Shown: one piece after another, positions 35,335 to 54,069 of the stretch
Layout of the letters: every line of letters begins with the position of its first letter
How positions within the stretch are numbered: position 1 is the first letter of the stretch
Virus record (IMG/VR): IMGVR_UViG_3300036768_000196
Location: 1 to 54,069 of that record
DNA length: 54,069 nucleotides
DNA from: a virus
Lineage: Duplodnaviria; Caudoviricetes
Direction: 5' to 3' (one strand)
Program-made: the position numbers and the translations under genes
Notes under the pieces: model-generated
Told to the model about the DNA's origin: nothing
Database searches by the model: none
Seen by the model: the letters and a program-made list of their open reading frames with translations, nothing else

Positions 35335-35545
35335 AGCCAAAGAAGTTGCGGAGGATTACAGCAACTTCTTTGGCTCTTTACCAAGTCATCAGGAAGGTAC
35401 TGAAGTACCTTCCTAATGACTTGTATTGCGAAGCCTGCTCCCGAAAGGTCCCAAAAACCTTTCGGGGTAAGCAGGCTTCGCTCAATGCGAAGCCAATGGA
35501 CTTAATAGTTATTAAGTCCTTTGGCTTCGCTATAAGGCGAAGCCT
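35335..35545. repeat. Array of near-perfect inverted repeats
   Basis: 35335-35349/35361-35375, 35382-35401/35404-35423, 35429-35449/35457-35480, 35498-35506/35511-35519 and 35523-35530/35537-35544. Confidence 0.85.
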
Positions 35546-35564
35546 TATTTTTTTATAAAACGTT

Positions 35565-35593
35565 ATTATAGCATATTTTTCGAATTTTGTCAA
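35565..35593 (-). promoter_or_regulatory. sigma70-type promoter for the structural arm
   Basis: Reverse complement TTGACA-17 nt-TATAAT with TGn extension; overlapped by a 14-bp inverted repeat (35576-35609). Confidence 0.85.
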
Positions 35594-35849
35594 GTCAAAA
35601 TTCGAAAAAGGTATCCCATAAATATGGTATAATACCATATTTATGGTATAATATATCTTTTTTTATAGTTATACTATACCATTTTTATGGTATACATGCT
35701 TTTTTTGAAAATATGCGGCAGCGTGAAATGATGCCTTACGCTCCACTCATAGCTGCCGCTTTTCCCCCCACCGGGGGGTCTAATCATCGCTGCCGCATTG
35801 ATCGTGCCCGCTCTCGGCGTTGCCGATTGCATCGCGGGCACTACTGAAA

Positions 35850-35970
35850 GCATGCGAGCAGTGCTCGCGTAGATGCATGCGCTTGATCATATAAAAGCGC
35901 ATGCTTGATACATCTTTACTGTGTAAAGATGTATTCTGCATCCATCTTTTAGGTTAAAGATGGATGCTTG
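35850..35970. repeat. Second array of inverted repeats
   Basis: GCGAGCA/TGCTCGC, GCATGCGCTT/AAGCGCATGC, ATACATCTTTAC/GTAAAGATGTAT and GCATCCATCTTT/AAAGATGGATGC. Confidence 0.8.
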
Positions 35971-36132
35971 ATCTATCTTATTGATTTAAAAGGGATTTCT
36001 AGTACATCTTTTCCATACATAGACTTAGCAGCGCCGACACCGTGCGATATCGGCAAACTTTTCACCTTGTGAAATTTCTAAAACTTTTAGAACGTGCTGC
36101 GCGCAGTACCTTAAACGCGGTATAGCGCGAGC

Positions 36133-36161
36133 TTGCGTTATTGCCTAAGCCGTGCTACAAT
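36133..36161 (+). promoter_or_regulatory. Probable early sigma70 promoter
   Basis: TTGCGT-17 nt-TACAAT with TGn extension, upstream of the first + arm gene. Confidence 0.6.
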
Positions 36162-36406: not shown

Positions 36407-36426
36407 CTTACTTGGGAGAATGCACC

Positions 36427-37068
36427 ATGCAAGTCGAAATCGAAGGCAAAGGCGCGGTGAACGTTCCTGACAAGCTGGCCGCCGAAGTGCAATCGGCGGT
36501 TAAGACTACCGAAGGATCTACCGCCAAATGGCGGGATTTGTGGCCGAAGGTTGAAGACACCTTTGGCGATAACGCTTTCACGCGCGGCACGCCTGAATAT
36601 AAGGCAGTGCACCGCTTCGTGGCATCCATGCATCCCGCTTGGCGGGAAGCTCCCGAAAGGGGGGATAACTCGGATGCTGCTAACTCGGCGCGTGCGGGAC
36701 GCGCACAAGCCCTGACCGTGGCATCCGTGGCCATGTCGCTTATGGCCAAGTATCGTGCCCAACATTATAATGAGGGCGCTGAACGTGGCCCCCGGCGCAA
36801 GATTGCTTACGCTGAAAAGCGTACCCTGATCATCAAGACTATCGCCCGCTTCGCAGAAAAGGGCGATGCCCAAGCTACCGCCGACTTGGCCGCATTGCGG
36901 GCTGCTAAGGCCGACAAGCAAGCCGAAAGGATCGATGTAGCACTCGCGCAGCCCCGCACGATCGGCGCAGAGTCGCGGCAGCCGGGTCCCGTCACGGTCA
37001 CCAAGCCCGCACCCGCCAAAGCCAAGGTTCGCAAGGCCAAGGCCGAAGCCCAAACCGCCACGGCATAA
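36427..37068 (+). CDS. GC-rich early protein with Lys/Ala-rich tail
   Basis: SD GGGAG before ATG 36427; ends KPAPAKAKVRKAKAEA; terminator follows. Confidence 0.7.
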   Translation: MQVEIEGKGAVNVPDKLAAEVQSAVKTTEGSTAKWRDLWPKVEDTFGDNAFTRGTPEYKAVHRFVASMHPAWREAPERGDNSDAANSARAGRAQALTVASVAMSLMAKYRAQHYNEGAERGPRRKIAYAEKRTLIIKTIARFAEKGDAQATADLAALRAAKADKQAERIDVALAQPRTIGAESRQPGPVTVTKPAPAKAKVRKAKAEAQTATA

Positions 37069-37080
37069 CGTGGAACTCAG

Positions 37081-37110
37081 AAAGCCCGCTTAACCGCGGG
37101 CTTTTTTTTT
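37081..37110 (+). terminator. Intrinsic terminator
   Basis: AAAGCCCGC-TTAACC-GCGGGC followed by a T run; a second hairpin plus T run at about 37126-37156. Confidence 0.85.
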
Positions 37111-37252
37111 GTCCTTTGATCCTACAGCCGCGCCAGCATAGGTGCGGTTTTTTTTTATGCCCAGTTCCTCGCACTGTGACTGCGCCGAAAAAGGTCGGTC
37201 AACAAAAAGCGGCGACAAGCCCAAAGCTGCAAAACCGCTGCGGCGCGTCAAT

Positions 37253-37281
37253 TTGACATAGCCTTGGAAGTGTTGTATAAT
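37253..37281 (+). promoter_or_regulatory. sigma70-type promoter
   Basis: TTGACA-17 nt-TATAAT exact consensus. Confidence 0.9.
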
Positions 37282-37290
37282 AACAACATA

Positions 37291-37321
37291 GACTGAGAAA
37301 ACAGTCATCGTTCTTTCACAA
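37291..37321 (+). promoter_or_regulatory. boxB-like hairpin plus boxA-like antitermination element
   Basis: GACTG-AGAAAA-CAGTC then CGTTCTTTCACAA (compare boxA TGCTCTTTAACA), about 10 nt after the -10 box. Confidence 0.55.
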
Positions 37322-37364
37322 TGCAAAAATTCTAAAAGTTTTAGAAAAAGCTTTTAGAAAAAAA

Positions 37365-37930
37365 CTAGAAGGCAAGGCGCGCATGATCCTGCCCATATGG
37401 GTGCGGGAAAAGGCAAAAGCAGTTGCGCTGTATAAAAATTATTTTTAGTGCAATTGGACTGGAACGGCGTAAGGTAGGGTGCAGTTAATAAAAGCAATGC
37501 CCCACAGACAAACCGAGATTCAGTGCCGAACGACATAGACGCGACTATGGAAAGCTGGTCGGAGAGCCAGCGATGTAGTGCGAAACCTGCCTTCGAGTCA
37601 GCAGTGCTGCGGGTTGGCATCCGTGGCACTGTTGGCGAAGCGACTAGCATAAAGTCCCCAAAAGGGATGGTCCGTGCGCGGTAGGACAATCTGGTAGTGC
37701 GGAATCGGGAAATCCGATAGAGGGTCACCGCACGGTTGGCCAGAATCGCTATAGAAAATGAACCCCTCGACTCTATTCCCGGTGCTTGACCCAAACAGGC
37801 CGGAGAATCCTGCACGCAGCCTGAATAGGATTTCACTCGAATCCTCGGCGTGCCCTTCGATTCCCTGTACGGCGAAAGCACTGAAAGGAATTGAGAGCAA
37901 GGCTATCGAAGAGGTAGCCTTGTCATCAGT
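37365..37930 (+). ncRNA. Candidate large structured non-coding RNA (family unassigned)
   Basis: No + strand ORF in the track; GC-elevated; many stems with G-U pairs, long-range helices and loop-downstream complementarities. Confidence 0.65.
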
Positions 37931-37948
37931 CCCTTGAAAGGAGCCAAA

Positions 37949-38293
37949 ATGGCTATCTATATTTGTAACGAATTCTCTCTGTCTATGTTGGACAGAGAAA
38001 CCCAGCTTGAGGAAACACGAGAAGGGTGCGGGCGTGCTCCCATACCTATCAGCGCAGACACGGTGCGCCTAATGTTGAATACTGTGTGGACGCCGATTAT
38101 ATCGGCGGTAAGGCACGCCGACACTGCCAGAATCTTCTCTGTCATCCTAGGTTACCAAATCGAGGCAAACCGGGTGAGTGTTAAGCTCTACCGTGACGAT
38201 AAAGCTATCGTAGGCCTGTATGTAGGACCAAAGATTCCCAAAGGTGCTACTGCCCTCCCAGAGGGGGCAACCATCGAGTGGTGGCTAATATAA
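37949..38293 (+). CDS. DUF1874/STIV B116/YddF family protein (AcrIII-1 ring-nuclease homolog)
   Basis: NEFSLSML, ISAVRHADTA, NRVSVKL and GPKIPKGATALPEG match the family motifs NAFS, GH, NR and RLxEG. Confidence 0.8.
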   Translation: MAIYICNEFSLSMLDRETQLEETREGCGRAPIPISADTVRLMLNTVWTPIISAVRHADTARIFSVILGYQIEANRVSVKLYRDDKAIVGLYVGPKIPKGATALPEGATIEWWLI

Positions 38294-38311
38294 TTAACCT
38301 CTCTTTTCTGT

Positions 38312-38339
38312 AGTCCACCAATCGGTGGACTTTTTTTTT
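38312..38339 (+). terminator. Intrinsic terminator
   Basis: AGTCCACC-AATC-GGTGGACT followed by a T run. Confidence 0.8.
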
Positions 38340-38361
38340 CTCCAAAGAAAGGAGATTTCCA

Positions 38362-38781
38362 ATGGAAAAGAAATACGTGCTCACTGACGAAACACGGATT
38401 GTCGAAGGAAAAACCTTGTACCGCATTAAAGCGTTGCGTGATTTCGGTAACGTCAAGGCAGGGCAATTAGGTGGATGGGTTGAGAATGAATTGAACCTAT
38501 CACAACTAGGAAACTGCTGGATCGCTGATGATGCATGTGTATATGATAGAGCAACCGTATCAGACGATGCTCAGGTTAGTGATAAAGCGAACATCAAGGA
38601 ATTTGCTCACGTTTTTGAAAACGCAAAAATTTTTGGAAATGTGTATTTGAAAAATAATGTAAGGGTATTCGGAAACGCAAAAATATCTGGAAAATGTTTT
38701 TTACTTGATGAGGTACAAGTATCCGGTGATGCACATATCACCGGAAAAACATTCATCATGGGACGTGCTCTTATTTCGTAA
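38362..38781 (+). CDS. Phage hexapeptide-repeat (beta-helix) protein
   Basis: KYVLT...LYRIKALRDFG.VKAG.LGGWVE.E.NLSQ.GNCW plus VxxNAx repeats. Confidence 0.8.
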   Translation: MEKKYVLTDETRIVEGKTLYRIKALRDFGNVKAGQLGGWVENELNLSQLGNCWIADDACVYDRATVSDDAQVSDKANIKEFAHVFENAKIFGNVYLKNNVRVFGNAKISGKCFLLDEVQVSGDAHITGKTFIMGRALIS

Positions 38782-39544: not shown

Positions 39545-39621
39545 GGGCCGTTAGCTTAATCGGTTAGAGCAGCCGACTCATAATCGGCGGGTTACAGGTT
39601 CGAATCCTGTACGGCCCACCA
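39545..39621 (+). tRNA. tRNA with CAT anticodon, probably tRNA-Ile2 (lysidine)
   Basis: Full cloverleaf; GGGCCGT/ACGGCCC acceptor stem; anticodon loop CTCATAA; TTCGAAT T-loop; encoded CCA; C4-G69 and C5-G68 pairs typical of TilS substrates. Confidence 0.93.
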
Positions 39622-40908: not shown

Positions 40909-41559
40909 ATGTGCTACCTGTATACATCCACAAAAGATAAACCTATGCACTTCGTTGAGCGTATCTGTGCTGGAGGTGTCTTTGGGAATTTGGTGAAAGA
41001 AAAGAAATTAAAGTATGTAGGTTTCAAGAACAAATTTATCTCGGAAAGGCATAATGTCATTGTCGATTGGCTCGAAACAATAGAAAAAGCATTTGAAATA
41101 AAAGTTATAAAAATAGAACAAGCCGACGAAGAACCTGAATTTGAAGACGTGAAAAAGAAAAAATTCAATGGTTATGTATGGGAATTTCCTGAACATAACT
41201 ACAAATGGAACATTATGCACTTGGCTGTGCTGTTAGCCAGACAGCCAGTGGAAAATGAATCCAGTGTAGGAATAAAAAACGAAAATAATGTCAAAAATCC
41301 ACTGAGACTTACAGGAGAAAAACCTAAAGATCCTTTAGGTAAATTTCTTGTCCTGACAAACGAAGAATTGTTTGATCGTGCTGCTGTACACGGATTATCA
41401 CTCTTTAACTTCGCAAGAAGTGCAAAAGGATACAGTTTACACTCATTCAAGCTTGATAAAGCGATCGAAGATCTTAGGAATAAAACGGATATGCTTATAA
41501 ATGATGCAGCAAATTTGGGTGTAATTTTTGCCGGTTATTCTCCAAGAAAAGGACAATAA
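40909..41559 (+). CDS. Hypothetical protein
   Basis: 216-aa ORF leading into the ligase cluster. Confidence 0.65.
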   Translation: MCYLYTSTKDKPMHFVERICAGGVFGNLVKEKKLKYVGFKNKFISERHNVIVDWLETIEKAFEIKVIKIEQADEEPEFEDVKKKKFNGYVWEFPEHNYKWNIMHLAVLLARQPVENESSVGIKNENNVKNPLRLTGEKPKDPLGKFLVLTNEELFDRAAVHGLSLFNFARSAKGYSLHSFKLDKAIEDLRNKTDMLINDAANLGVIFAGYSPRKGQ

Positions 41560-41560
41560 A

Positions 41561-42124
41561 ATGTCTGCACTGTTTTTATGGGGAGGTGAAGACATTTCCC
41601 CATCCCTATACGGACAAAAACCTGTGCATACCAATGCACCGGCTAAACCTTCTCAACGTGACTTAAAAGAGATCAAGCTAATCAATGAAGCTGTAAAAAG
41701 TCAACGTCCTATTATCGGCATCTGTCGTGGCGCTCAACTTCTTTGTGTAATTCACGGCGGAAAACTTTGGCAGCATGTAGAAAAGCATGCCGGCACTGTT
41801 CCGCATGAACTAGAATTAAAGCTAAAAGATGGAGTAGAAAAAGTTTATTCTAACTCCACACATCATCAGATGATGATCCCTGACGAGGATGCAGAAATCA
41901 TCGCTACTACTACAGAACCTTTGTATCCTTACCGATGGAGTGAAGACAAAAATCCTGTAAAGGTAGTGGATAAAGATGTCGAAATTCTGTATCTACCTAG
42001 ACTAAACGCGCTTGCAATTCAGGCACATCCAGAATGGATGCCAAAGAATTGCAAATTCAACCAAATGCTTCGTCAACTTGTAGAGGAGAAATTCAATGGT
42101 GAAGTATCCCTCCCTTGGCTGTGA
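41561..42124 (+). CDS. Class I glutamine amidotransferase/peptidase C26
   Basis: GGEDI.P.LYG, GICRGAQ and QAHPE catalytic triad. Confidence 0.9.
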   Translation: MSALFLWGGEDISPSLYGQKPVHTNAPAKPSQRDLKEIKLINEAVKSQRPIIGICRGAQLLCVIHGGKLWQHVEKHAGTVPHELELKLKDGVEKVYSNSTHHQMMIPDEDAEIIATTTEPLYPYRWSEDKNPVKVVDKDVEILYLPRLNALAIQAHPEWMPKNCKFNQMLRQLVEEKFNGEVSLPWL

Positions 42125-42884
42125 TCCGGAATGGTTCCTTCAAACCGAAGATGGAAAAGTAGTCTCAGCAATTGGAAAGATCGGAGGCACCAAGCAAGAA
42201 CCTCGTGTTTTGTTTACTGAGAAAATCCGAGGAAAAGAATTCCCTTTTTGCGTTCAGGAAGACAACGTCCTGCTTGAATACAACATCCCACCAGCTACAT
42301 GCAAAAGTGAGTGGCTCGATTTCAATCTGCTAATCCAAAGCAAGATTAAAGAGGAACTTCAAAAACAGGGGCTTAAGCCACTCATCGTTCCTTCTTATAT
42401 CATGCCAAAAGAGGAGATGAATAATCCGTTCGCTTGGGTATTTGGGTGCGATCCTGATTACAACGCATGGACACGTAAACCAAATCCTAATCCAGCATCA
42501 CAAAACAAGTTCCTTAGGTCTGCTGGAGGACATATCCACATTGGATTCAAGGGAAACAAAGAGGACAAGATACGGTTCGTGAAACTACTGGACCTTTTCC
42601 TAGATGCACCTTTGATGCTAATGGATAAGGATCGGCGCAGGCAGGAGCTTTACGGTAGACCGGGTGCGTTCCGATTCAAGCCGTATGGTCTAGAATACAG
42701 GACGCCAAGTAATTTCTGGACGCAGAGTTTGCAGACAATGGAGATGGTATACAACTGCGTCATGACGGCTTGGGAAAACTTCTACAAGTTAGAAGTTCCT
42801 GATGAAGTTCAGCAGATTCTCCTGCGAGGAAATGACGAAGAAATCTCTGAGATGGTAAATAAATATGTATACTCATCCCTATAA
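42096..42884 (+). CDS. phiEco32-like COOH-NH2 ligase type 2
   Basis: LGCDPE.F, QEDNV..E, GCDPDYNAW, RSAGGHIHIG and EYRTPSNFW. Confidence 0.9.
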   Translation: MVKYPSLGCDPEWFLQTEDGKVVSAIGKIGGTKQEPRVLFTEKIRGKEFPFCVQEDNVLLEYNIPPATCKSEWLDFNLLIQSKIKEELQKQGLKPLIVPSYIMPKEEMNNPFAWVFGCDPDYNAWTRKPNPNPASQNKFLRSAGGHIHIGFKGNKEDKIRFVKLLDLFLDAPLMLMDKDRRRQELYGRPGAFRFKPYGLEYRTPSNFWTQSLQTMEMVYNCVMTAWENFYKLEVPDEVQQILLRGNDEEISEMVNKYVYSSL

Positions 42885-43416
42885 ACCTCAGTTTAATCTC
42901 CCAGTGAATGGAGATTCAATTAATGATCTCGTAAGAAAATGGGGAGACTCTTTTTCTTGTGTTTATACCGATAAAGAATTTCTATTCGGATTCATCTCAT
43001 CTTTAGATGATTTAATAGTAAATTTGTGGAAAAAGGATGGCGGAAAGTTTTTATCAACAAAGGCAAAACCAACTTATTTCTATTTTCCATCGTGTTTATT
43101 TCCACACAGTAACTACATATATTTCCTACAAAGGAAAAACGAAAATGTATTCAAAGTAGGAATCAGTTCATTAAACTATAATCTCTTTTATTACGATAAA
43201 AGAGAAAAGAAATTTCTATATGATTCGGTAGAAGGTAATCCCGCATTATTCAGTTATGCTTCATTCATCACTAGCGGAATGGAGCATGAAAACATATGTG
43301 GTAATTTCTGTTATATTGACGGAAAACTTTTCTATAAAAATGATGAAGTTTCCCCTAGACTATTTCATTTAGTTCCTAAATTCATTCTCAACAAGTGGGG
43401 ACTAAAATGCCCATAG
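42865..43416 (+). CDS. Hypothetical protein
   Basis: AT-rich ORF inside the ligase cluster. Confidence 0.6.
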   Translation: MYTHPYKPQFNLPVNGDSINDLVRKWGDSFSCVYTDKEFLFGFISSLDDLIVNLWKKDGGKFLSTKAKPTYFYFPSCLFPHSNYIYFLQRKNENVFKVGISSLNYNLFYYDKREKKFLYDSVEGNPALFSYASFITSGMEHENICGNFCYIDGKLFYKNDEVSPRLFHLVPKFILNKWGLKCP

Positions 43417-44219
43417 TTTATGAAATTTATAGCCACGCTGAGGATGTAGAAACAAAATTGTATCCTCAGATCGAATATGGAAGGAAAAAATTTCCCGGAT
43501 TGAAAACCTATATGGGGTGGGTGTCTAACCCAATAGGTATTGAAATTGAAATAGAGGGATACAAATTCATTGACCCAATGCTGAAAAATGAACCACTCTT
43601 CTACTGGAAGACGATAAAGGATGGTTCTTTAAGGGATGGAATAGAGTTCTGCTCGATTCCCCTTGTCAGCAGCGGAATTGATTATGCATTGGCAGAAATC
43701 GAGCCATTCCTTGCCCAATGCAGAGTTTCTCACAGAACCGGGATTCACGTTCACAATAATGTTTCAAGGCTAACAAAAGAAAAACTTTATCTTCTGTTTG
43801 CATATTATATTCTTTTTGAAGAAGAATTCTTTGGATTCGTAGATCCTTTAAGAAAAGCAAATCCTTATTGTGTTCCTGTAATTGGACTTGATGTAGGAAT
43901 CTCCCCGAAGAAATACTTTGCTTTTGACATGATGGAATCACTAAATAACTACAGGACAGTAGAATTCCGTCATTTGGAAACAACCCATGATGTAAGGAAA
44001 ATACGGAGGTTTTTACAACTTGTAACAAAGCTGCATAGGTTCATTCATATCAATGAAGTTAAAAAGCTTATAAACATTTTGAACTCGATTGAAGATCAAT
44101 CAGAATATGAAAAGCTTTTAGACAAAGTCTTCGGTAAAACAGCCAGCTTCTTGAAAAAAACTCTCTGCCCAGACAATCTGTTTTATGCTAGGTTCATAGC
44201 ATATAAACTCTCCCGCTGA
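43407..44219 (+). CDS. Putative amidoligase (COOH-NH2 ligase)
   Basis: IGIEIEIE, DGSLR..IEF, RTGIHVH and TVEFRH. Confidence 0.85.
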   Translation: MPIVYEIYSHAEDVETKLYPQIEYGRKKFPGLKTYMGWVSNPIGIEIEIEGYKFIDPMLKNEPLFYWKTIKDGSLRDGIEFCSIPLVSSGIDYALAEIEPFLAQCRVSHRTGIHVHNNVSRLTKEKLYLLFAYYILFEEEFFGFVDPLRKANPYCVPVIGLDVGISPKKYFAFDMMESLNNYRTVEFRHLETTHDVRKIRRFLQLVTKLHRFIHINEVKKLINILNSIEDQSEYEKLLDKVFGKTASFLKKTLCPDNLFYARFIAYKLSR

Positions 44220-44226
44220 GACAAAA

Positions 44227-45456
44227 ATGTGCGGAATTTACGGAATCATTTCAAAGAACGGAACGGAGATCAACAAAGATGCCCTATATCAAATGGGGCT
44301 TCTTTCTGCATTACGGGGCACTGACAGCACCGGGCTATGCCTAATCAAAAAGAATGGTGATGCTCGAATCATCAAAACTATTGGCCCTGTAATGAACCTG
44401 TATTATGAAAAGGGCTGGAAAAAATTCGAAGAAGAATTTAAAGATGCAGTAGCAGTGTTTGGTCACTGCCGTTATGCCACCGTCGGAGATGTAGATAAAA
44501 AGAATGCACAGCCTCTTGTAAATGGCAACCTGATTCTATTGCATAACGGAACACTTACAGCAGTCAAAACAGAAAAAGGAGAATCAGACTCTACTGTTTT
44601 CTGTAAGAAAATAAAGGAAATGGGAGTGAAGGATGCCGTAAAATCTACCGCAGGTTCTATGGCAATCGTTACGTATGACTTGAATGACAAGAAAGTTACT
44701 TTCTACAGGAATTATCAAAGGCCATTATCGTATGCAAACACACAAAACTTTATTTATGTAATGTCAGAAAGGTCTGCTTTAGAGTATCTGTTTACCAGAA
44801 ATAATATCAGATTCGATGATAAATCTGACTTCGATGGTTATACTTTATATCATTTGGATATTAATAATCCTGCTGCTGGAATAGAAAAAGGTGATGATCT
44901 TTATGTCTCTGTAACAAGAAGGGAAAGCCATACAAATTTTTTTCCAGTTTTTGGAAAAGGTTTTTGGAATGACCTTTCCCCTCATTACAAGGAAGGTGGA
45001 GAAATAAACTTCATCGTTGAAAGCTTGTTTGAAAGTTCACAGAAAGGACAATATGTCTATATGTGCAGCGATGAAGATAACAGGCGTATTTTCTTTAAGA
45101 CAGACAAGAAGATTGATTCATTACTAGGTAAGATTGGAACAGGAGAATGTTGCAGCGTAGTAAAACATAACAACAGCTTCATGTATCAAGTAAAATACCG
45201 GACCATCAAATGGGATGATGAAAAACCAGACGACGATGAAGATGAAGTAGTCACTCTGGATGAATTAATTCCAAGAAAACAGTGGCTTGAGCTAGTCAAG
45301 AAAGAAGAATGCTCTGGCTGCAATAGGTCAATTCTCCTTGATGAGCATTACAACACGATGGTTTGGGAAGATGTAAAAGGGAAATGGCATCTCCTTTGCG
45401 GAGATTGTTATAATCGTAGCACTCCAGTTGCAAGTAACGAAAGGGTATTCACATGA
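44227..45456 (+). CDS. Class II (Ntn) glutamine amidotransferase with a C-terminal Cys-rich region
   Basis: MCGIYG, RGTDSTG, GHCRYAT, HNGT and DS; C-terminal CSGC...CGDC. Confidence 0.9.
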   Translation: MCGIYGIISKNGTEINKDALYQMGLLSALRGTDSTGLCLIKKNGDARIIKTIGPVMNLYYEKGWKKFEEEFKDAVAVFGHCRYATVGDVDKKNAQPLVNGNLILLHNGTLTAVKTEKGESDSTVFCKKIKEMGVKDAVKSTAGSMAIVTYDLNDKKVTFYRNYQRPLSYANTQNFIYVMSERSALEYLFTRNNIRFDDKSDFDGYTLYHLDINNPAAGIEKGDDLYVSVTRRESHTNFFPVFGKGFWNDLSPHYKEGGEINFIVESLFESSQKGQYVYMCSDEDNRRIFFKTDKKIDSLLGKIGTGECCSVVKHNNSFMYQVKYRTIKWDDEKPDDDEDEVVTLDELIPRKQWLELVKKEECSGCNRSILLDEHYNTMVWEDVKGKWHLLCGDCYNRSTPVASNERVFT

Positions 45457-46184
45457 TTATCGTACCATATAGTTGGCATTCCAAGTCTGTATGGAAACTG
45501 GCAGAAGAGCTGAATTTCTGGCTAGTATCCAGAAAAGAAATGGTTACCGAAAAAGGAATCAATTGGGGATGTAGCAAATTATGGATTGAAAACCCAGGTC
45601 TGGTGCTAAATAAGGATTATGCAGTTGAACGCGCAGTGTTTAAGAAAAAGTTATATTCCATTCTAGAACAGAATGGTATTCCTGCCGTAGAAAGCACAGA
45701 CGACAAAGAAGTAGCAAAAAGATGGCTTGACGAAGACAACATCGTATTTGCAAGAAAAGACGGATTGTCAAAAGGCAAAGGAATCAAAATCTTACATCAA
45801 GGAGATGAAGTACCCGAAGCAGACTTCTATACAAAATATATCCAAAAGAGAAAAGAGTTTAGGATCCATTGCACTAAATTCGACGTGTTCGATATAACCC
45901 AGAAGAAGCGAAAGCGGGATGAAAAACAAAATGAATTCATTAGAAACAGAAAGAATGGATGGATCTTTGCCAGACAAGATCTAAAGATCCCTAACAATAT
46001 TGAGGATCTGGCACTTAAAACAATTAAAGCACTAGAGCTTGATTTTGGTGCAGTAGATATAATCTATGATCTGGATGCAAAAAAGTTAAAGGTGCTGGAA
46101 GTAAATACTGCGCCGGGTCTGGAAGGGACTACCCTTCTTAAATATGTAGAAATGTTCAAAAACCATCCTCACTTTGCGGAGTAA
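45453..46184 (+). CDS. ATP-grasp ligase (RimK-like)
   Basis: INWG, GKGI, EFRIH, LDFGAVDII and LEVNTAPG. Confidence 0.9.
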   Translation: MIIVPYSWHSKSVWKLAEELNFWLVSRKEMVTEKGINWGCSKLWIENPGLVLNKDYAVERAVFKKKLYSILEQNGIPAVESTDDKEVAKRWLDEDNIVFARKDGLSKGKGIKILHQGDEVPEADFYTKYIQKRKEFRIHCTKFDVFDITQKKRKRDEKQNEFIRNRKNGWIFARQDLKIPNNIEDLALKTIKALELDFGAVDIIYDLDAKKLKVLEVNTAPGLEGTTLLKYVEMFKNHPHFAE

Positions 46185-47180: not shown

Positions 47181-47209
47181 TTGACAAAATTCCCGTTTTG
47201 TGGTATAAT
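47181..47209 (+). promoter_or_regulatory. sigma70-type promoter
   Basis: TTGACA-17 nt-TATAAT with TGn extension. Confidence 0.9.
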
Positions 47210-47214
47210 ACGCA

Positions 47215-47465
47215 CTTCAAAACTGGAAAAAGTTTTGCGTCAGGGCGCGTTAGCTAATACCCGGACCGCGGGGGTACCCAGGACAGCGGTAGACGGACAC
47301 TAGCCGAAAGGCACCGGTGCAACTCCGCATGGTGAGCCGTCCGACTGGTTGAATCGGCAAGTCGGGGGACTAGGGAGTGCCATGCCCTAGCATGCCGATC
47401 CCGTTAACTCGGGGCAGGAACCTACCTCTCCTTATACCCTGTCGTGGGGTAGGGGGAGGTTTTGG
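47215..47465 (+). ncRNA. Candidate structured ncRNA or attenuator leader (about 250 nt)
   Basis: GC-rich non-coding island after the promoter; multiple stems, a GNRA loop, a pseudoknot pairing and a terminal hairpin plus TTTT. Confidence 0.6.
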
Positions 47466-47551
47466 CAGGAACTTTATGAATTCTTATGTCATAAGTCAAG
47501 AAAAAATTGAACTTTTAGAAAAATCTCTTGTCTAATGGAGATATAACCAAA

Positions 47552-47743
47552 ATGAAACTACCATACGGATTCCACGAAGTTATTATCGACGAATATGATC
47601 CACGAGTGAGATATCCTCGCCGCCGTGCCAAGGCGTGGCGTGATGCGATGAAACCCGGCAAATGCCGGTCTCTCACCAAAGAAGAGATAAAAGAACTATA
47701 TGGTGCAGAGTTCCTTGCTGAAAGCACTCCTAAAGAAGGATAA
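47552..47743 (+). CDS. Small hypothetical protein
   Basis: SD GGAG; MKLPYGFHEV... Confidence 0.6.
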   Translation: MKLPYGFHEVIIDEYDPRVRYPRRRAKAWRDAMKPGKCRSLTKEEIKELYGAEFLAESTPKEG

Positions 47744-51444: not shown

Positions 51445-52173
51445 ATGTATGTGCAATGTGATGCATCTCAATTGGAATGGCGAGTTCTTAACTGGCTGGC
51501 TAATGATCCAGTAGGTCTTCGTGAGCTTAATGAGGAAATAGATGTTCATTCGGCGAATCAAAAGGCATTTAATCTACCAACGAGACTTATCTCCAAAAAG
51601 TACCTATTTCGTACTATTTACCGCGGCTCTGGCTGGAGTTTCGCTAATGATCCTGATTTTATGGGCGTTTCTGATGATCCTGACTTTTGGGATGAAATAA
51701 ACAGGAAGTTCTATGACAAGTACAAAGGAATTGACAAGTACCATAGAAACCTTGCAGATCTGGTTATAAGAAACAAGCCTATTTGCTCACCACTTGGCCG
51801 TGAATGGCTAGTTGGACTAAAAGAGAACGGAATGATTCCGTGGACAGTCTTGACTAATTATCCAGTGCAGGGTACTGGAAATGATCTTCTGGCAATAACA
51901 AGAATAAGCCTAAGAAAGAACATGAATGAAAAAAAGATGCGGTCCCTTCTGGTATCTACTGTCCACGATTCGATCGTTGCTGATTGCCCTGAGGAGGAAG
52001 CAAAAGATGTAGCCAACCTCATGTACGATGTATTTGACATTTACCTTCCGAAGAATGTGAAGGCTATCTGGAATATAGACTTGCCATGCAAGTTTCCATG
52101 CGAGGTTAAAATTGGTCCTAACCTCAAGGACATGGATAAATACCAAAAACAGGGTATTGACAGGCAGGACTGA
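51445..52173 (+). CDS. Family A DNA polymerase, C-terminal catalytic part
   Basis: Motif A DASQLEWR, motif B RLISKKYLFRTIY, motif C VHDS. Confidence 0.92.
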   Translation: MYVQCDASQLEWRVLNWLANDPVGLRELNEEIDVHSANQKAFNLPTRLISKKYLFRTIYRGSGWSFANDPDFMGVSDDPDFWDEINRKFYDKYKGIDKYHRNLADLVIRNKPICSPLGREWLVGLKENGMIPWTVLTNYPVQGTGNDLLAITRISLRKNMNEKKMRSLLVSTVHDSIVADCPEEEAKDVANLMYDVFDIYLPKNVKAIWNIDLPCKFPCEVKIGPNLKDMDKYQKQGIDRQD

Positions 52174-52204
52174 ATTGGATATAATATAGACAAAGAGGAT
52201 AGAG

Positions 52205-52732
52205 ATGTTAATCGAGATCAAACAGGTATCTACGAAGAATGTAGTCAAAGGTAGAAACAAATACACCCAAATGGATGTAAGTTACCACAACCTGGACAAA
52301 AACCGGGAAGAGGGTAAAAAATCCTTGATGTCATTTACTACTGAGCAGGCTACATGGAATGCCCTTTCAAATGCAAAACAGGGTGAAGTATACAAGGTAA
52401 AAGCACAGAAAAACGACAAAGGGTTTTGGGACTGGGTAGAAGCAGTCAAGGAGGAAACTAACCAGATGGTTCAAGGAAAGCCTATTCCTGTATCGACACG
52501 TCCAAACTATGAGACGGCTGATGAACGTGCCCGTAGGCAGGTTTATATTATCCGTCAAAGCTCTATTGCATCTGCAATCGAGTATTATAAAGACCAAGGC
52601 AAGCGACCTAAAGTAGAAGAAGTTCTGGCTCTTGCCAAGGTATTCGAGAACTATGTGATGTCGGAAGACGACAATAATGAGGTAACTCCCAAGGATACTT
52701 GGGAAGTTGCTGATGAAGCGGAGATTAAATAA
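52205..52732 (+). CDS. Duplicate of 693-1220
   Basis: Identical translation. Confidence 0.8.
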   Translation: MLIEIKQVSTKNVVKGRNKYTQMDVSYHNLDKNREEGKKSLMSFTTEQATWNALSNAKQGEVYKVKAQKNDKGFWDWVEAVKEETNQMVQGKPIPVSTRPNYETADERARRQVYIIRQSSIASAIEYYKDQGKRPKVEEVLALAKVFENYVMSEDDNNEVTPKDTWEVADEAEIK

Positions 52733-52756
52733 TAAAGTCATCTTAGGCAAACTCAA

Positions 52757-53548
52757 ATGAAGTGTGAATCCTTCAAGAGAAATGCCAAATCCGTAAAAGA
52801 GCTACTTGCCTCTATCAGGAATGGTAAGTTCACGCTAGATGGAAGAAATCTTATTGTTCGTGGCAACCTTTCACTTAAAAATTTGGGATTAACTTCTCTT
52901 CTTGGTTGCCCAAAATATGTTGGTGGTGAATTTAACTGTTCAGGTAATGAGTTAAAAACATTAGAAGGGTCACCACAAAAAGTTGGTAGTTTTGATTGCA
53001 GCTTCAACGACTTAATTTCTCTTGAAGGCGGACCTCGAAAAGTAGAATACAGGTACGATTGCAGTGACAACAGGCTAAAAACACTTGAAGGTGCGCCACC
53101 AAAAGTTGGTAGTTTTGACTGTTCTCGCAACAACCTTCAAACATTGAAAGGCGGACCACAGGAAGTAGGTACCTACTTTATTTGCGACTACAATAAGCTC
53201 GAAACGCTGGATGGAGGACCTGTTAAGGTAGGAGCTACTTATAGCTGTAGCAATAATAAGTTAATCTCTCTTAAGGGTGCACCACGGGTAGTTGGCTACA
53301 ATTTTTATTGTAGACAAAACAAGCTATCTTCGTTAGAAGGTTGTCCTCGTACCATTGGCGGTAGTTTATACTGTGAAAAAAATAAACTTCTTACTTCACT
53401 TGAAGGAGGCCCACGTTATATTGTTGAGGATGTTTATTTGTATGGTTGTCCTAACTTAATCTCTATTGAGAATTTTCATCTTTACTTGCCTAAAGTACTC
53501 GGCAAATTTTATTTCAAAAAAAGGAGGTTTGTATGTACTATAAAGTAG
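52757..53548 (+). CDS. Duplicate of the LRR-like protein 1245-2036
   Basis: Identical translation. Confidence 0.8.
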   Translation: MKCESFKRNAKSVKELLASIRNGKFTLDGRNLIVRGNLSLKNLGLTSLLGCPKYVGGEFNCSGNELKTLEGSPQKVGSFDCSFNDLISLEGGPRKVEYRYDCSDNRLKTLEGAPPKVGSFDCSRNNLQTLKGGPQEVGTYFICDYNKLETLDGGPVKVGATYSCSNNKLISLKGAPRVVGYNFYCRQNKLSSLEGCPRTIGGSLYCEKNKLLTSLEGGPRYIVEDVYLYGCPNLISIENFHLYLPKVLGKFYFKKRRFVCTIK

Positions 53549-53765
53549 TTCGTAATGGAGTAACTGTAGCAAAGGGGTTTTCTAACTACGAGAAGGCACG
53601 TCAATTCTTGCGTAAACTTCTACGTAAGAAAGATCCGATTCGTGTGAACCGTCAGCCAGACCCGCTTTCTGCTTTCCTTTTCGGCTACGAAATCGTTCGA
53701 GTTGACAAATAATAGATGACATGGCCTCCCCGCAAGGGGAGGCTTTTCCTGACAAGGAATTACAG

Positions 53766-54069
53766 ATGTTGTGCCTTATTGATGGCGACATTGTAGCTTA
53801 CAGATGCGCAGCTTCCTGCGAACCAACGAAAGAAAAACATGAGCGAGATCCCCTTGACATCGCAATTGCAAGAGCAGATTCCCTCTTATACCGCATCGTT
53901 AGTGACACTCAATCTACTGAATATCGGCTCTTTATATCAGGCACTGGAAATTTTAGAAAAAAGCTCTATCCGCAGTACAAAGCTAATCGTGAACATTTAC
54001 CACGACCAGTATGGCTTGACGAACTTCGTAAATTTCTGGTTGAAGAATGGAAAAGTGAAGTCACTTCCG
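53766..54069 (+). CDS. 5'-3' exonuclease, partial duplicate of 2254-3021
   Basis: Same sequence, truncated at the window end. Confidence 0.8.
   Translation, partial: MLCLIDGDIVAYRCAASCEPTKEKHERDPLDIAIARADSLLYRIVSDTQSTEYRLFISGTGNFRKKLYPQYKANREHLPRPVWLDELRKFLVEEWKSEVTS

Follow-up and report, generated by a model that had tools for sequence, protein, structure and literature searches.

A candidate multi-domain structured RNA of about 570 nucleotides heading an early transcription unit in a microbial mat phage

The window analyzed here is the whole of IMG/VR virus record IMGVR_UViG_3300036768_000196 (Duplodnaviria; Caudoviricetes), a complete virus genome of 54,069 bp with direct terminal repeats and an overall GC content of 0.432. 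Near-identical copies of this phage occur in two runs, both labelled as microbial mat metagenome (X1 and X2). Structural genes occupy the - strand up to ~35,384, and early and replication genes the + strand from 36,152, the latter set comprising ribonucleotide reductase, dCMP deaminase, a DnaB-like helicase and a family A polymerase together with a phiEco32-like amidoligase/GATase/ATP-grasp cluster. The subject is region 37285-37935 within the early module, for which an initial annotation had proposed a pseudoknotted non-coding RNA of about 600 nucleotides (nt), transcribed from a consensus early promoter ahead of an anti-CRISPR-family gene. The features of the locus are collected in Table 1.

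The exact TTGACA-17-TATAAT promoter claimed for the head of the region was confirmed, and the usual promoter spacing would place the transcription start at ~37288. Exact TTGACA-N17-TATAAT promoters occupy four distinct sites in the genome, at 645 (again at 52157 in the terminal repeat), 37253, 47181 and, on the - strand, 35593. It can be observed that the longest + strand open reading frame (ORF) within 37285-37935 has at most 59 amino acids (aa), so that the description of about 650 nt with no credible + strand ORF is borne out, and that the GC content reaches ~0.55 across 37450-37900 against 0.432 for the genome, as had also been claimed. According to a gene map drawn from crude codon scores, 37069-37933 is both the longest (865 nt) and the most GC-rich (0.50) non-coding gap of the genome. 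Two hairpins resembling intrinsic terminators precede the promoter, and their sequence suggests that they end the upstream gene (36412-37068) and insulate the RNA unit. Downstream lies a gene whose product matches PF08960, STIV_B116-like, with 30.0 bits against a gathering cut-off of 26 (E 5.8e-7, residues 33-88) and phrog_5063 with E 5.7e-12. The His of its VRHADT motif aligns with the His of STIV B116 (2j85) and AFV3-109 (2j6b) at E 0.0011, which we take to be the GH motif histidine of the DUF1874/AcrIII-1 family, catalytic in the cleavage of cyclic tetra-adenylate (cA4). The label of AcrIII-1 homolog is therefore fair at the family level, on the strength of the sequence match.

Table 1. Features of the locus, with positions in the 54,069-nt window (bp, base pairs; MFE, minimum free energy structure; RBS, ribosome-binding site)
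Feature	Position	Strand	Basis or remark
Two intrinsic-terminator-like hairpins	37079..37158	+	stems 37079-37106 and 37126-37149, T run after each
Sigma-70 consensus promoter, TTGACA-17-TATAAT	37253..37281	+	12/12 matches; TTGACA at 37253, TATAAT at 37276
Small 5' hairpin, GACTG/CAGTC	37291..37306	+	5 bp, probability 1.00
AT-rich box	37314..37362	.	37314-37346 is 82% identical to 36060-36092 (33 nt, E 0.002)
Open frame of 175 aa	37354..37881	-	codon score -0.185; passed over in the initial annotation
Domain I	37366..37594	+	MFE, pair probabilities, natural variants, permutation tests
Variant-supported helices of domain I	37465-37467/37513-37515, 37474-37479/37501-37505, 37534-37538/37545-37549, 37554-37559/37566-37571, 37420-37430/37446-37456	+	
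18-bp hairpin	37597..37636	+	37597-37614/37619-37636, mean pair probability 0.97
3' core domains	37639..37883	+	hairpins 37654-37668 and 37704-37718
3' core helices	37671-37677/37697-37703, 37780-37787/37876-37883, 37812-37817/37848-37853, 37827-37833/37839-37845	+	MFE
Composite 3' helix, 4 + 5 + 11 bp	37885..37935	+	ends two bases before the RBS
RBS (GAAAGGAG) and 114-aa gene of the DUF1874/AcrIII-1 family	37936..38293	+	ATG at 37949
Terminator-like hairpin behind the AcrIII-1-like gene	38312..38340	+	within the 415-nt segment missing from some variants

Coding potential was assessed with a codon log-odds score trained on 28 long genes of the phage (mean +0.231 per codon, minimum -0.008). For all six frames of the core the score lay between -0.18 and -0.58 per codon, against +0.149 for the upstream gene, which is just as GC-rich. 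A protein gene might nevertheless be sought in the 175-aa - strand frame, which is open and was taken by gene callers in the phage's own record (protein P0001) and in a second record (P0002), or in small + strand frames of 53 and 59 aa. Against this stand the negative codon score of the 175-aa frame, the absence of any Pfam or PHROG family for it, no Shine-Dalgarno sequence before its GTG, and a transcription that would run head-on into the consensus promoter. Moreover, only near-identical relatives were seen, at similar or shorter lengths: among 5.8 billion proteins the frame recovered itself and P0002 (134 aa, 87% identity), with none among shorter proteins, and 17 of the 134 residues of P0002 differ, including W>R, C>Y, G>R and P>L. 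The frame was accordingly judged spurious. With no coding signal in any frame of either strand and no conserved homologues, the locus agrees with its non-coding assignment, and a protein gene is scarcely credible as its explanation.

The fold was analyzed as the MFE of 37285-37948 together with pair probabilities. The GC-rich core, 37366-37935, is predicted to form a multi-domain structure of ~570 nt. Domain I is closed by the helix 37368-37374/37588-37594 (7 + 2 bp, probability 0.89), which corresponds to the long-range closure proposed in the initial annotation, and at least five helices branch inside it. Next comes the hairpin first described as a 15-bp stem with four G-U pairs; its 11 Watson-Crick and four G-U pairs are present, and the MFE extends it to 18 bp, making it a candidate site for a double-strand-specific RNase. 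In the 3' core domains, 37692-37699 has two possible partners, 37671-37677, which it takes in the MFE, and 37727-37733, with which it would form 6 perfect pairs; the alternative pairing within 37671-37733 represents a possible structure switch in the most conserved part of the core. The core ends with a composite helix whose 11-bp part (37897-37907/37913-37923, probability 0.99) is the long hairpin previously noticed before the RBS, here stacked on two further short helices. Since no T run follows, this helix is not a terminator and transcription should continue into the next gene; it is a candidate processing or stabilizing hairpin. The Shine-Dalgarno sequence and AUG of the downstream gene are predicted to lie within a small local hairpin.

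All complementary words listed in the initial annotation were found at the coordinates given for them. The pairings TTCGAGT/ACTCGAA and 37519-37526/37878-37885 are absent from the MFE. As for the two proposed pseudoknots, GGGTCA/TGACCC is a 6-nt word that is likewise absent from the MFE, while GCACGC/GCGTGC forms an ordinary nested helix there, and none of the variants mapped below falls in either. By our own arithmetic, ~3 perfect inverted matches of 8 nt, ~13 of 7 nt and ~50 of 6 nt are expected by chance in 650 nt, so that the short words carry no weight and the term pseudoknotted is unsupported. Furthermore, 37284-37301 is complementary over 18 nt to 37973-37990, which lies within the AcrIII-1-like gene; this pairing was considered as a closing helix or as the ends of a miniature inverted-repeat transposable element and rejected, being absent from the MFE and having a 10-nt seed at chance level.

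The energy of the fold differs strongly between strands. For the + strand, the MFE is -232.1 kcal/mol compared with -196.2 +/- 5.8 kcal/mol for shuffled sequences (z -6.25), and 0 of 20 shuffles folded as well; for the - strand, z is -1.92 and 1 of 20 shuffles was as good. A second run with 10 shuffles gave z -7.16 and -2.26 for the + and - strands, respectively. G-U pairs account for 23 of 173 pairs on the + strand fold and 16 of 170 on the - strand fold, and this asymmetry agrees with the earlier claim, drawn from G-U pairs, that the structure belongs to RNA rather than to DNA.

Natural variation provides a second line of evidence. DNA contigs of X1 and X2 were aligned to the genome at 80% likeness and display much strain variation, with at least 13 substitutions in the region among the best-supported variants listed; at this likeness no X2 contig covers 37605-37691 and nearly none 37692-37778. 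A second haplotype was derived from protein P0002, each of its 17 residue differences being explicable by one base change, and all four of the derived changes open to cross-checking (37503, 37566, 37569 and 37571) are also present in the X1/X2 contigs. Placed on the MFE, the resulting 26 changes comprise three compensatory doubles, six pair-keeping changes, three pair-breaking changes and eleven at unpaired positions. The doubles are 37466 G>A with 37514 C>T (G-C to A-U), 37556 T>C with 37569 A>G (U-A to C-G), and 37535 A>G with 37548 T>C (A-U to G-C), the last occurring in X2 at equal depth on one contig each. The pair-keeping changes are 37430 G>A (G-U to A-U) and C>T opposite G at 37503, 37505, 37571, 37590 and 37773, the latter five remaining paired on the + strand only.

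In a permutation null of 20,000 trials, each change was reassigned at random among the positions that share its reference base. With all 26 changes treated as one group, three or more compensatory pairs arise with P 0.0005 (0.20 expected) and three or fewer broken pairs with P 0.0065 (7.9 expected). P0002 alone gives 2 compensatory pairs against 0.11 expected (P 0.0046) and 2 broken pairs against 4.9 (P 0.037). When the same 26 changes are placed on the - strand fold, 8 pairs are broken. Three helices of domain I thus carry compensatory double changes of the kind that marks a conserved structured RNA, and variants support five helices of this domain in all. Taken together, the region probably contains a genuinely selected + strand RNA structure.

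Several observations weigh against this view and reduce its force. Phage sequence in general folds well: 26 control values, from 13 other 651-nt windows of the phage on both strands, have a mean z of -2.0 and an extreme of -4.83. The + strand of the region is the most extreme among the 28 values when it is added with its - strand, and the real folding excess is ~three background standard deviations rather than six, so that energy alone is suggestive only. The expectation that the RNA should fold better than shuffled controls therefore stands for all 20 shuffles on the + strand and loses strength against the phage background. When 300-nt windows were regressed on base composition, the region was not an outlier (residual z -0.2 to -1.5), which implies that the excess stems from long-range nesting and G-U pairs. 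The changes at 37311, 37566 and 37604 break pairs, and 37604 G>A places an A-C mismatch midway along the 18-bp helix. Single pair-keeping changes show no enrichment (P 0.95), most of the changes being transitions. The MFE of the derived variant, -205.7 kcal/mol, is to be compared with a mean of -200.7 (sd 5.2) for random placements of the same 17 changes, 17% of 408 such placements folding as well. Support from variants falls almost wholly in domain I, the 3' half having nearly none. In addition, the P0002 haplotype comes from a translation in which silent changes of that frame are invisible, linkage among the X1/X2 contig variants is only partly established, and all variants come from one population. 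Deep covariation is lacking because no homologue was found outside that population.

The region might instead be non-functional spacer or relic DNA, for example a decayed acquired gene or a recombination scar, that folds through its GC- and G-richness and whose compensatory changes reflect chance or an artefact of inference from translation. The composition-corrected 300-nt windows, the variant energy test and the coding windows of the phage that reach z -4.8 are all compatible with this explanation, as are the orphan sequence with no homologues found, the mosaic neighbourhood and the indel-rich variants. It is opposed by the three compensatory doubles where 0.2 are expected, by the deficit of broken pairs, by the four of four derived changes confirmed in contigs and by the strong strand asymmetry of folding; furthermore, a tightly packed phage of lytic type rarely retains 570 nt of junk behind a perfect promoter. 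Relic DNA is therefore considered improbable.

A different character is displayed by the first 80 nt behind the promoter, which are AT-rich, look like an operator and probably lie outside the folded core. An RNA of about 600-650 nt beginning with the first base of the region is therefore not supported. The copy of the box at 36060-36092 lies just upstream of the first early gene. The box holds a perfect 17-nt palindrome, TTCTAAAA-N-TTTTAGAA, at 37330-37346, the only other exact copy in the genome being at 36076-36092; with up to 3 mismatches allowed, 3 matches are found against 0.82 expected. Judging from this recurrence, the 33-nt box is probably a protein-binding site or operator common to two early units under one early regulator, and it might be bound as DNA, as RNA, or both.

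The palindromic box gives some weight to the idea that the region works at the level of DNA, for instance as a replication origin or an array of protein-binding sites, and not as an RNA. Compensatory changes preserve DNA hairpins likewise, and a chain of DNA palindromes lies nearby at 35385-36151. In the core, however, folding is strand-specific (z -6.3 vs -1.9), 23 G-U pairs contribute to the fold, the five C>T changes opposite G would create A-C mismatches on the other strand, and the helices are long-range and nested, unlike the local perfect palindromes of 35735-36150. A DNA-level explanation is thus highly improbable for the core. The neighbouring region 35385-36151 is itself a 767-nt non-coding region between the divergent late (-) and early (+) modules, built as a chain of ~ten perfect local palindromes and including the - strand consensus promoter (35593) and copies of ATACCATATTTATGGTATA. 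It contains the largest folding outliers of the genome on both strands, with composition-corrected z down to -7.4 and, for 35735-36150, z -6.2 (+) and -8.7 (-). No Rfam match was found in it, and it has the look of a regulatory or origin region acting as DNA, not of a single RNA.

The relation between the RNA and the AcrIII-1-like gene was clarified by natural variants. A joint from 37935 to 38351, with three other letters between, occurs in X1 (one contig) and X2 (three contigs). It removes the AcrIII-1-like gene together with its terminator, and hence represents a presence/absence polymorphism of 415 nt (37936-38350) within the same mats. In the joint variants the RNA directly precedes the RBS of a beta-solenoid gene at 38362. 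The word GAAAGGAG stands at both edges of the missing piece, which fits a small accessory gene exchanged at ribosome-binding sites. Conversely, in two phage contigs with homologues of the AcrIII-1-like gene (63% and 45% identity) nothing RNA-like lies upstream, and in phage contigs with homologues of the beta-solenoid gene ordinary genes lie upstream. The RNA is not bound to the AcrIII-1-like gene, which is an accessory neighbour with a facultative linkage. The proposal of an RNA-plus-protein anti-defence cassette is not upheld, since contigs of two runs skip the gene and its homologues occur elsewhere without the RNA. Another joint, 37073 to 38315, which would remove promoter, RNA and gene, was seen in one X2 contig only (depth 4.2, 25-nt side) and was left unused as too weak.

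Membership of a described RNA family was examined with Rfam. A cmscan of the whole genome against 4,227 families at gathering score returned the tRNA-Met gene only. When 37000-38400 was scanned with E up to 10, a chance match to SmY (E 0.19, 19.3 bits against a gathering score of 39) was all that fell inside 37285-37935. No match was obtained to the models of ROOL, GOLLD, OLE, HEARO, RNase P RNA, transfer-messenger RNA (tmRNA), group I/II introns or riboswitches, and ARAGORN detected no tmRNA or tRNA in the region. The novelty expected by the initial annotation is consistent with this outcome; its reading as a GOLLD/ROOL-like class is not supported, as neither model matches and the RNA was found in one phage population only. 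The tRNA-Met (CAT) gene itself lies at 39545-39621 in the early region, 1.6 kb downstream of the RNA.

Homologues suitable for covariation analysis, which had been anticipated in related phage genomes, were not found outside the phage's own population. None was returned by blastn at a distant setting of 37200-38000 against 50,697 phage records, by blastn of the region against the flanks of homologues of the AcrIII-1-like and beta-solenoid genes (five loci), at related loci reached through the upstream 218-aa protein, by the - strand frame used as a DNA proxy in viral, metagenome and genome contigs or P0002 in metagenome contigs, or by BLAST over the whole records of five terminase-related phages. 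A 98%-identical contig stops near 36059 by our own arithmetic, before the region. Two covariance models, R1 (37458-37571) and R2 (37639-37776), run over the genome plus 16 loci (212 kb), recovered the source only and one match at E 1.4. Two pattern scans of viral contigs gave no homologue, and five loci from the second scan lacked an R2 match. Thus no collection searched gave a homologue, with the limits that records very near the window may be missing from them, so that close relatives could have gone unseen, and that seeding by exact words or degenerate patterns, or restriction to loci already collected, makes this weak evidence on distant relatives. ORF-free leaders behind consensus promoters in two relatives were rejected, their sequence resembling polymerase coding sequence. 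In the literature searched, no described RNA of such kind was found.

Our tentative interpretation is that the core 37366-37935 is a multi-domain structured RNA of ~570 nt, outside described families and restricted to one lineage, which heads an early operon and acts most likely as a cis leader. Here, the host sigma-70 RNA polymerase would start at the 37253 promoter and transcribe it as the opening, untranslated part of an early transcript, the operator-like box common to the other early unit lying just past the start site. The RNA would form a self-contained module, leading in this genome into the AcrIII-1-family gene and in sister genomes straight into the gene at 38362. As a structured cis leader, it could hold a long untranslated stretch of early transcript in a folded state and thereby protect it from Rho and RNases. 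A double-strand-specific RNase might then cut the long irregular helices 37597-37636 and/or 37885-37935, so that a stable RNA is set free from an early mRNA that is translated separately. A cis role is favoured because the RNA has no terminator of its own, stands at the head of the operon and tolerates different downstream genes. That both the leader role and its processing are drawn by analogy counts against this proposal.

Alternatively, the RNA may be freed from the early transcript as a stand-alone, trans-acting large non-coding RNA, a new class of ROOL/GOLLD size serving as scaffold, decoy or sponge, possibly in counter-defence. This is doubtful as it stands, albeit nearly as likely as the cis leader. 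With 570 nt and several domains, the fold is large by the standard of cis leaders, and the 3' half is more conserved than domain I, with 6 derived changes in 37595-37836 (242 nt) against 11 in 37437-37594 (158 nt). The RNA keeps its own strong promoter and stays constant while the downstream gene differs. Its GC content is raised within an AT-richer genome, a feature typical of structured RNA genes, and it is located in the early region, adjoining the AcrIII-1-family gene and 1.6 kb from a tRNA gene. On the other hand, a stand-alone RNA would be expected to have its own terminator, the known large RNAs are widespread while no homologues were found in the collections searched, neither the ROOL nor the GOLLD model matches, and the link to the anti-CRISPR-like gene is facultative. 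It is improbable that with this RNA a new class of large phage RNAs begins that act in trans in early infection, a folded machine or decoy made from the strongest promoter of the phage beside exchangeable counter-defence genes and itself with a part in counter-defence or host takeover; such an RNA would, for example, bind a host defence protein or signalling nucleotide, or assemble into a larger particle like ROOL/GOLLD.

Other features of the genome were observed alongside. The terminal repeat is apparently ~2.5 kb long (1-2557 and 51513-54069), its offset of 51,512 being seen in ORF starts and a consensus promoter (645/52157, 693/52205, 1245/52757, 2209/53721). The upstream 218-aa gene (36412-37068) has an unusually high GC content of ~0.60, a product with a Lys/Ala-rich tail, and numerous length variants in mat contigs (skips of 65-267 nt); this gene and the GC-rich RNA may have been acquired jointly. 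Its protein has no family in Pfam or PHROG and no usable Atlas match, and hence gives no sign of a role as an RNA partner. The exact promoter at 47181 opens a unit (47181-47555) with ~250 nt of GC-rich sequence without a long ORF, followed by an AT-rich stretch with CTTTTAGAAAAA, a small ORF and then the DnaB-like helicase gene; structure in this leader was not significant (z -1.68 and -1.51), and Rfam gave no match to it. Genes for glutamine amidotransferases, a phiEco32-like COOH-NH2 ligase, an amidoligase-like protein and an ATP-grasp protein at 41528-46184 suggest a peptide or nucleotide modification pathway.

To our knowledge, few large structured RNAs have been described from phages and a function has been assigned to none of them, so that any further example with evidence of selection on the fold offers a new way into their role. 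The present locus is experimentally convenient, offering a perfect E. coli-type promoter, a compact module and natural versions with and without the anti-CRISPR-family gene. It also indicates that strain-level variation in metagenomes can yield covariation evidence for an orphan RNA without distant homologues. If the RNA is a leader only, it is still unusually long and elaborate for a phage early operon.

Among known systems, the cis-acting RNAs of processive antitermination (HK022 put, EAR) measure 70-120 nt. Like them, the present RNA is structured and lies directly behind an early promoter, upstream of a terminator that polymerase has to pass on its way to later genes, here the one at 38312-38340 before the gene at 38362. 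It differs from them in size, matches no Rfam family and shows no sign of antitermination. In the Aca-bound leaders of acr operons, the 5' untranslated regions carry a single short hairpin or a pair of them, no farther than ~100 nt from the start codon, along with an aca regulator gene (PMC13551039). Compared with these leaders, the likeness lies in an RNA structure ahead of an anti-CRISPR-type gene and in a palindrome near the promoter, bindable as DNA, RNA or both; the differences lie in a fold of ~570 nt, in a unit where no helix-turn-helix or ribbon-helix-helix gene was identified, and in an RNA that persists without the acr-like gene. ROOL and GOLLD resemble it in being carried by phages or prophages, multi-domain and several hundred nt long, their function also being unassigned (PMC12286853, PMC5737381). 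They are widespread, whereas the present RNA was found in one phage population, and it runs without a terminator into a gene. ROOL and GOLLD often occur near tRNA genes, and here a tRNA-Met gene is likewise close. In the early leader of coliphage T7, RNase III sites precede the anti-restriction gene 0.3. A similar layout can be observed here, where a strong early promoter of host type is followed by a long untranslated leader, an irregular ~20-bp helix just ahead of the RBS of the first early gene, and, as that gene, a member of an anti-defence family. The two leaders have no sequence relation, and the present one differs from that of T7 in being longer, GC-rich relative to its genome, and folded into nested domains supported by natural variants.

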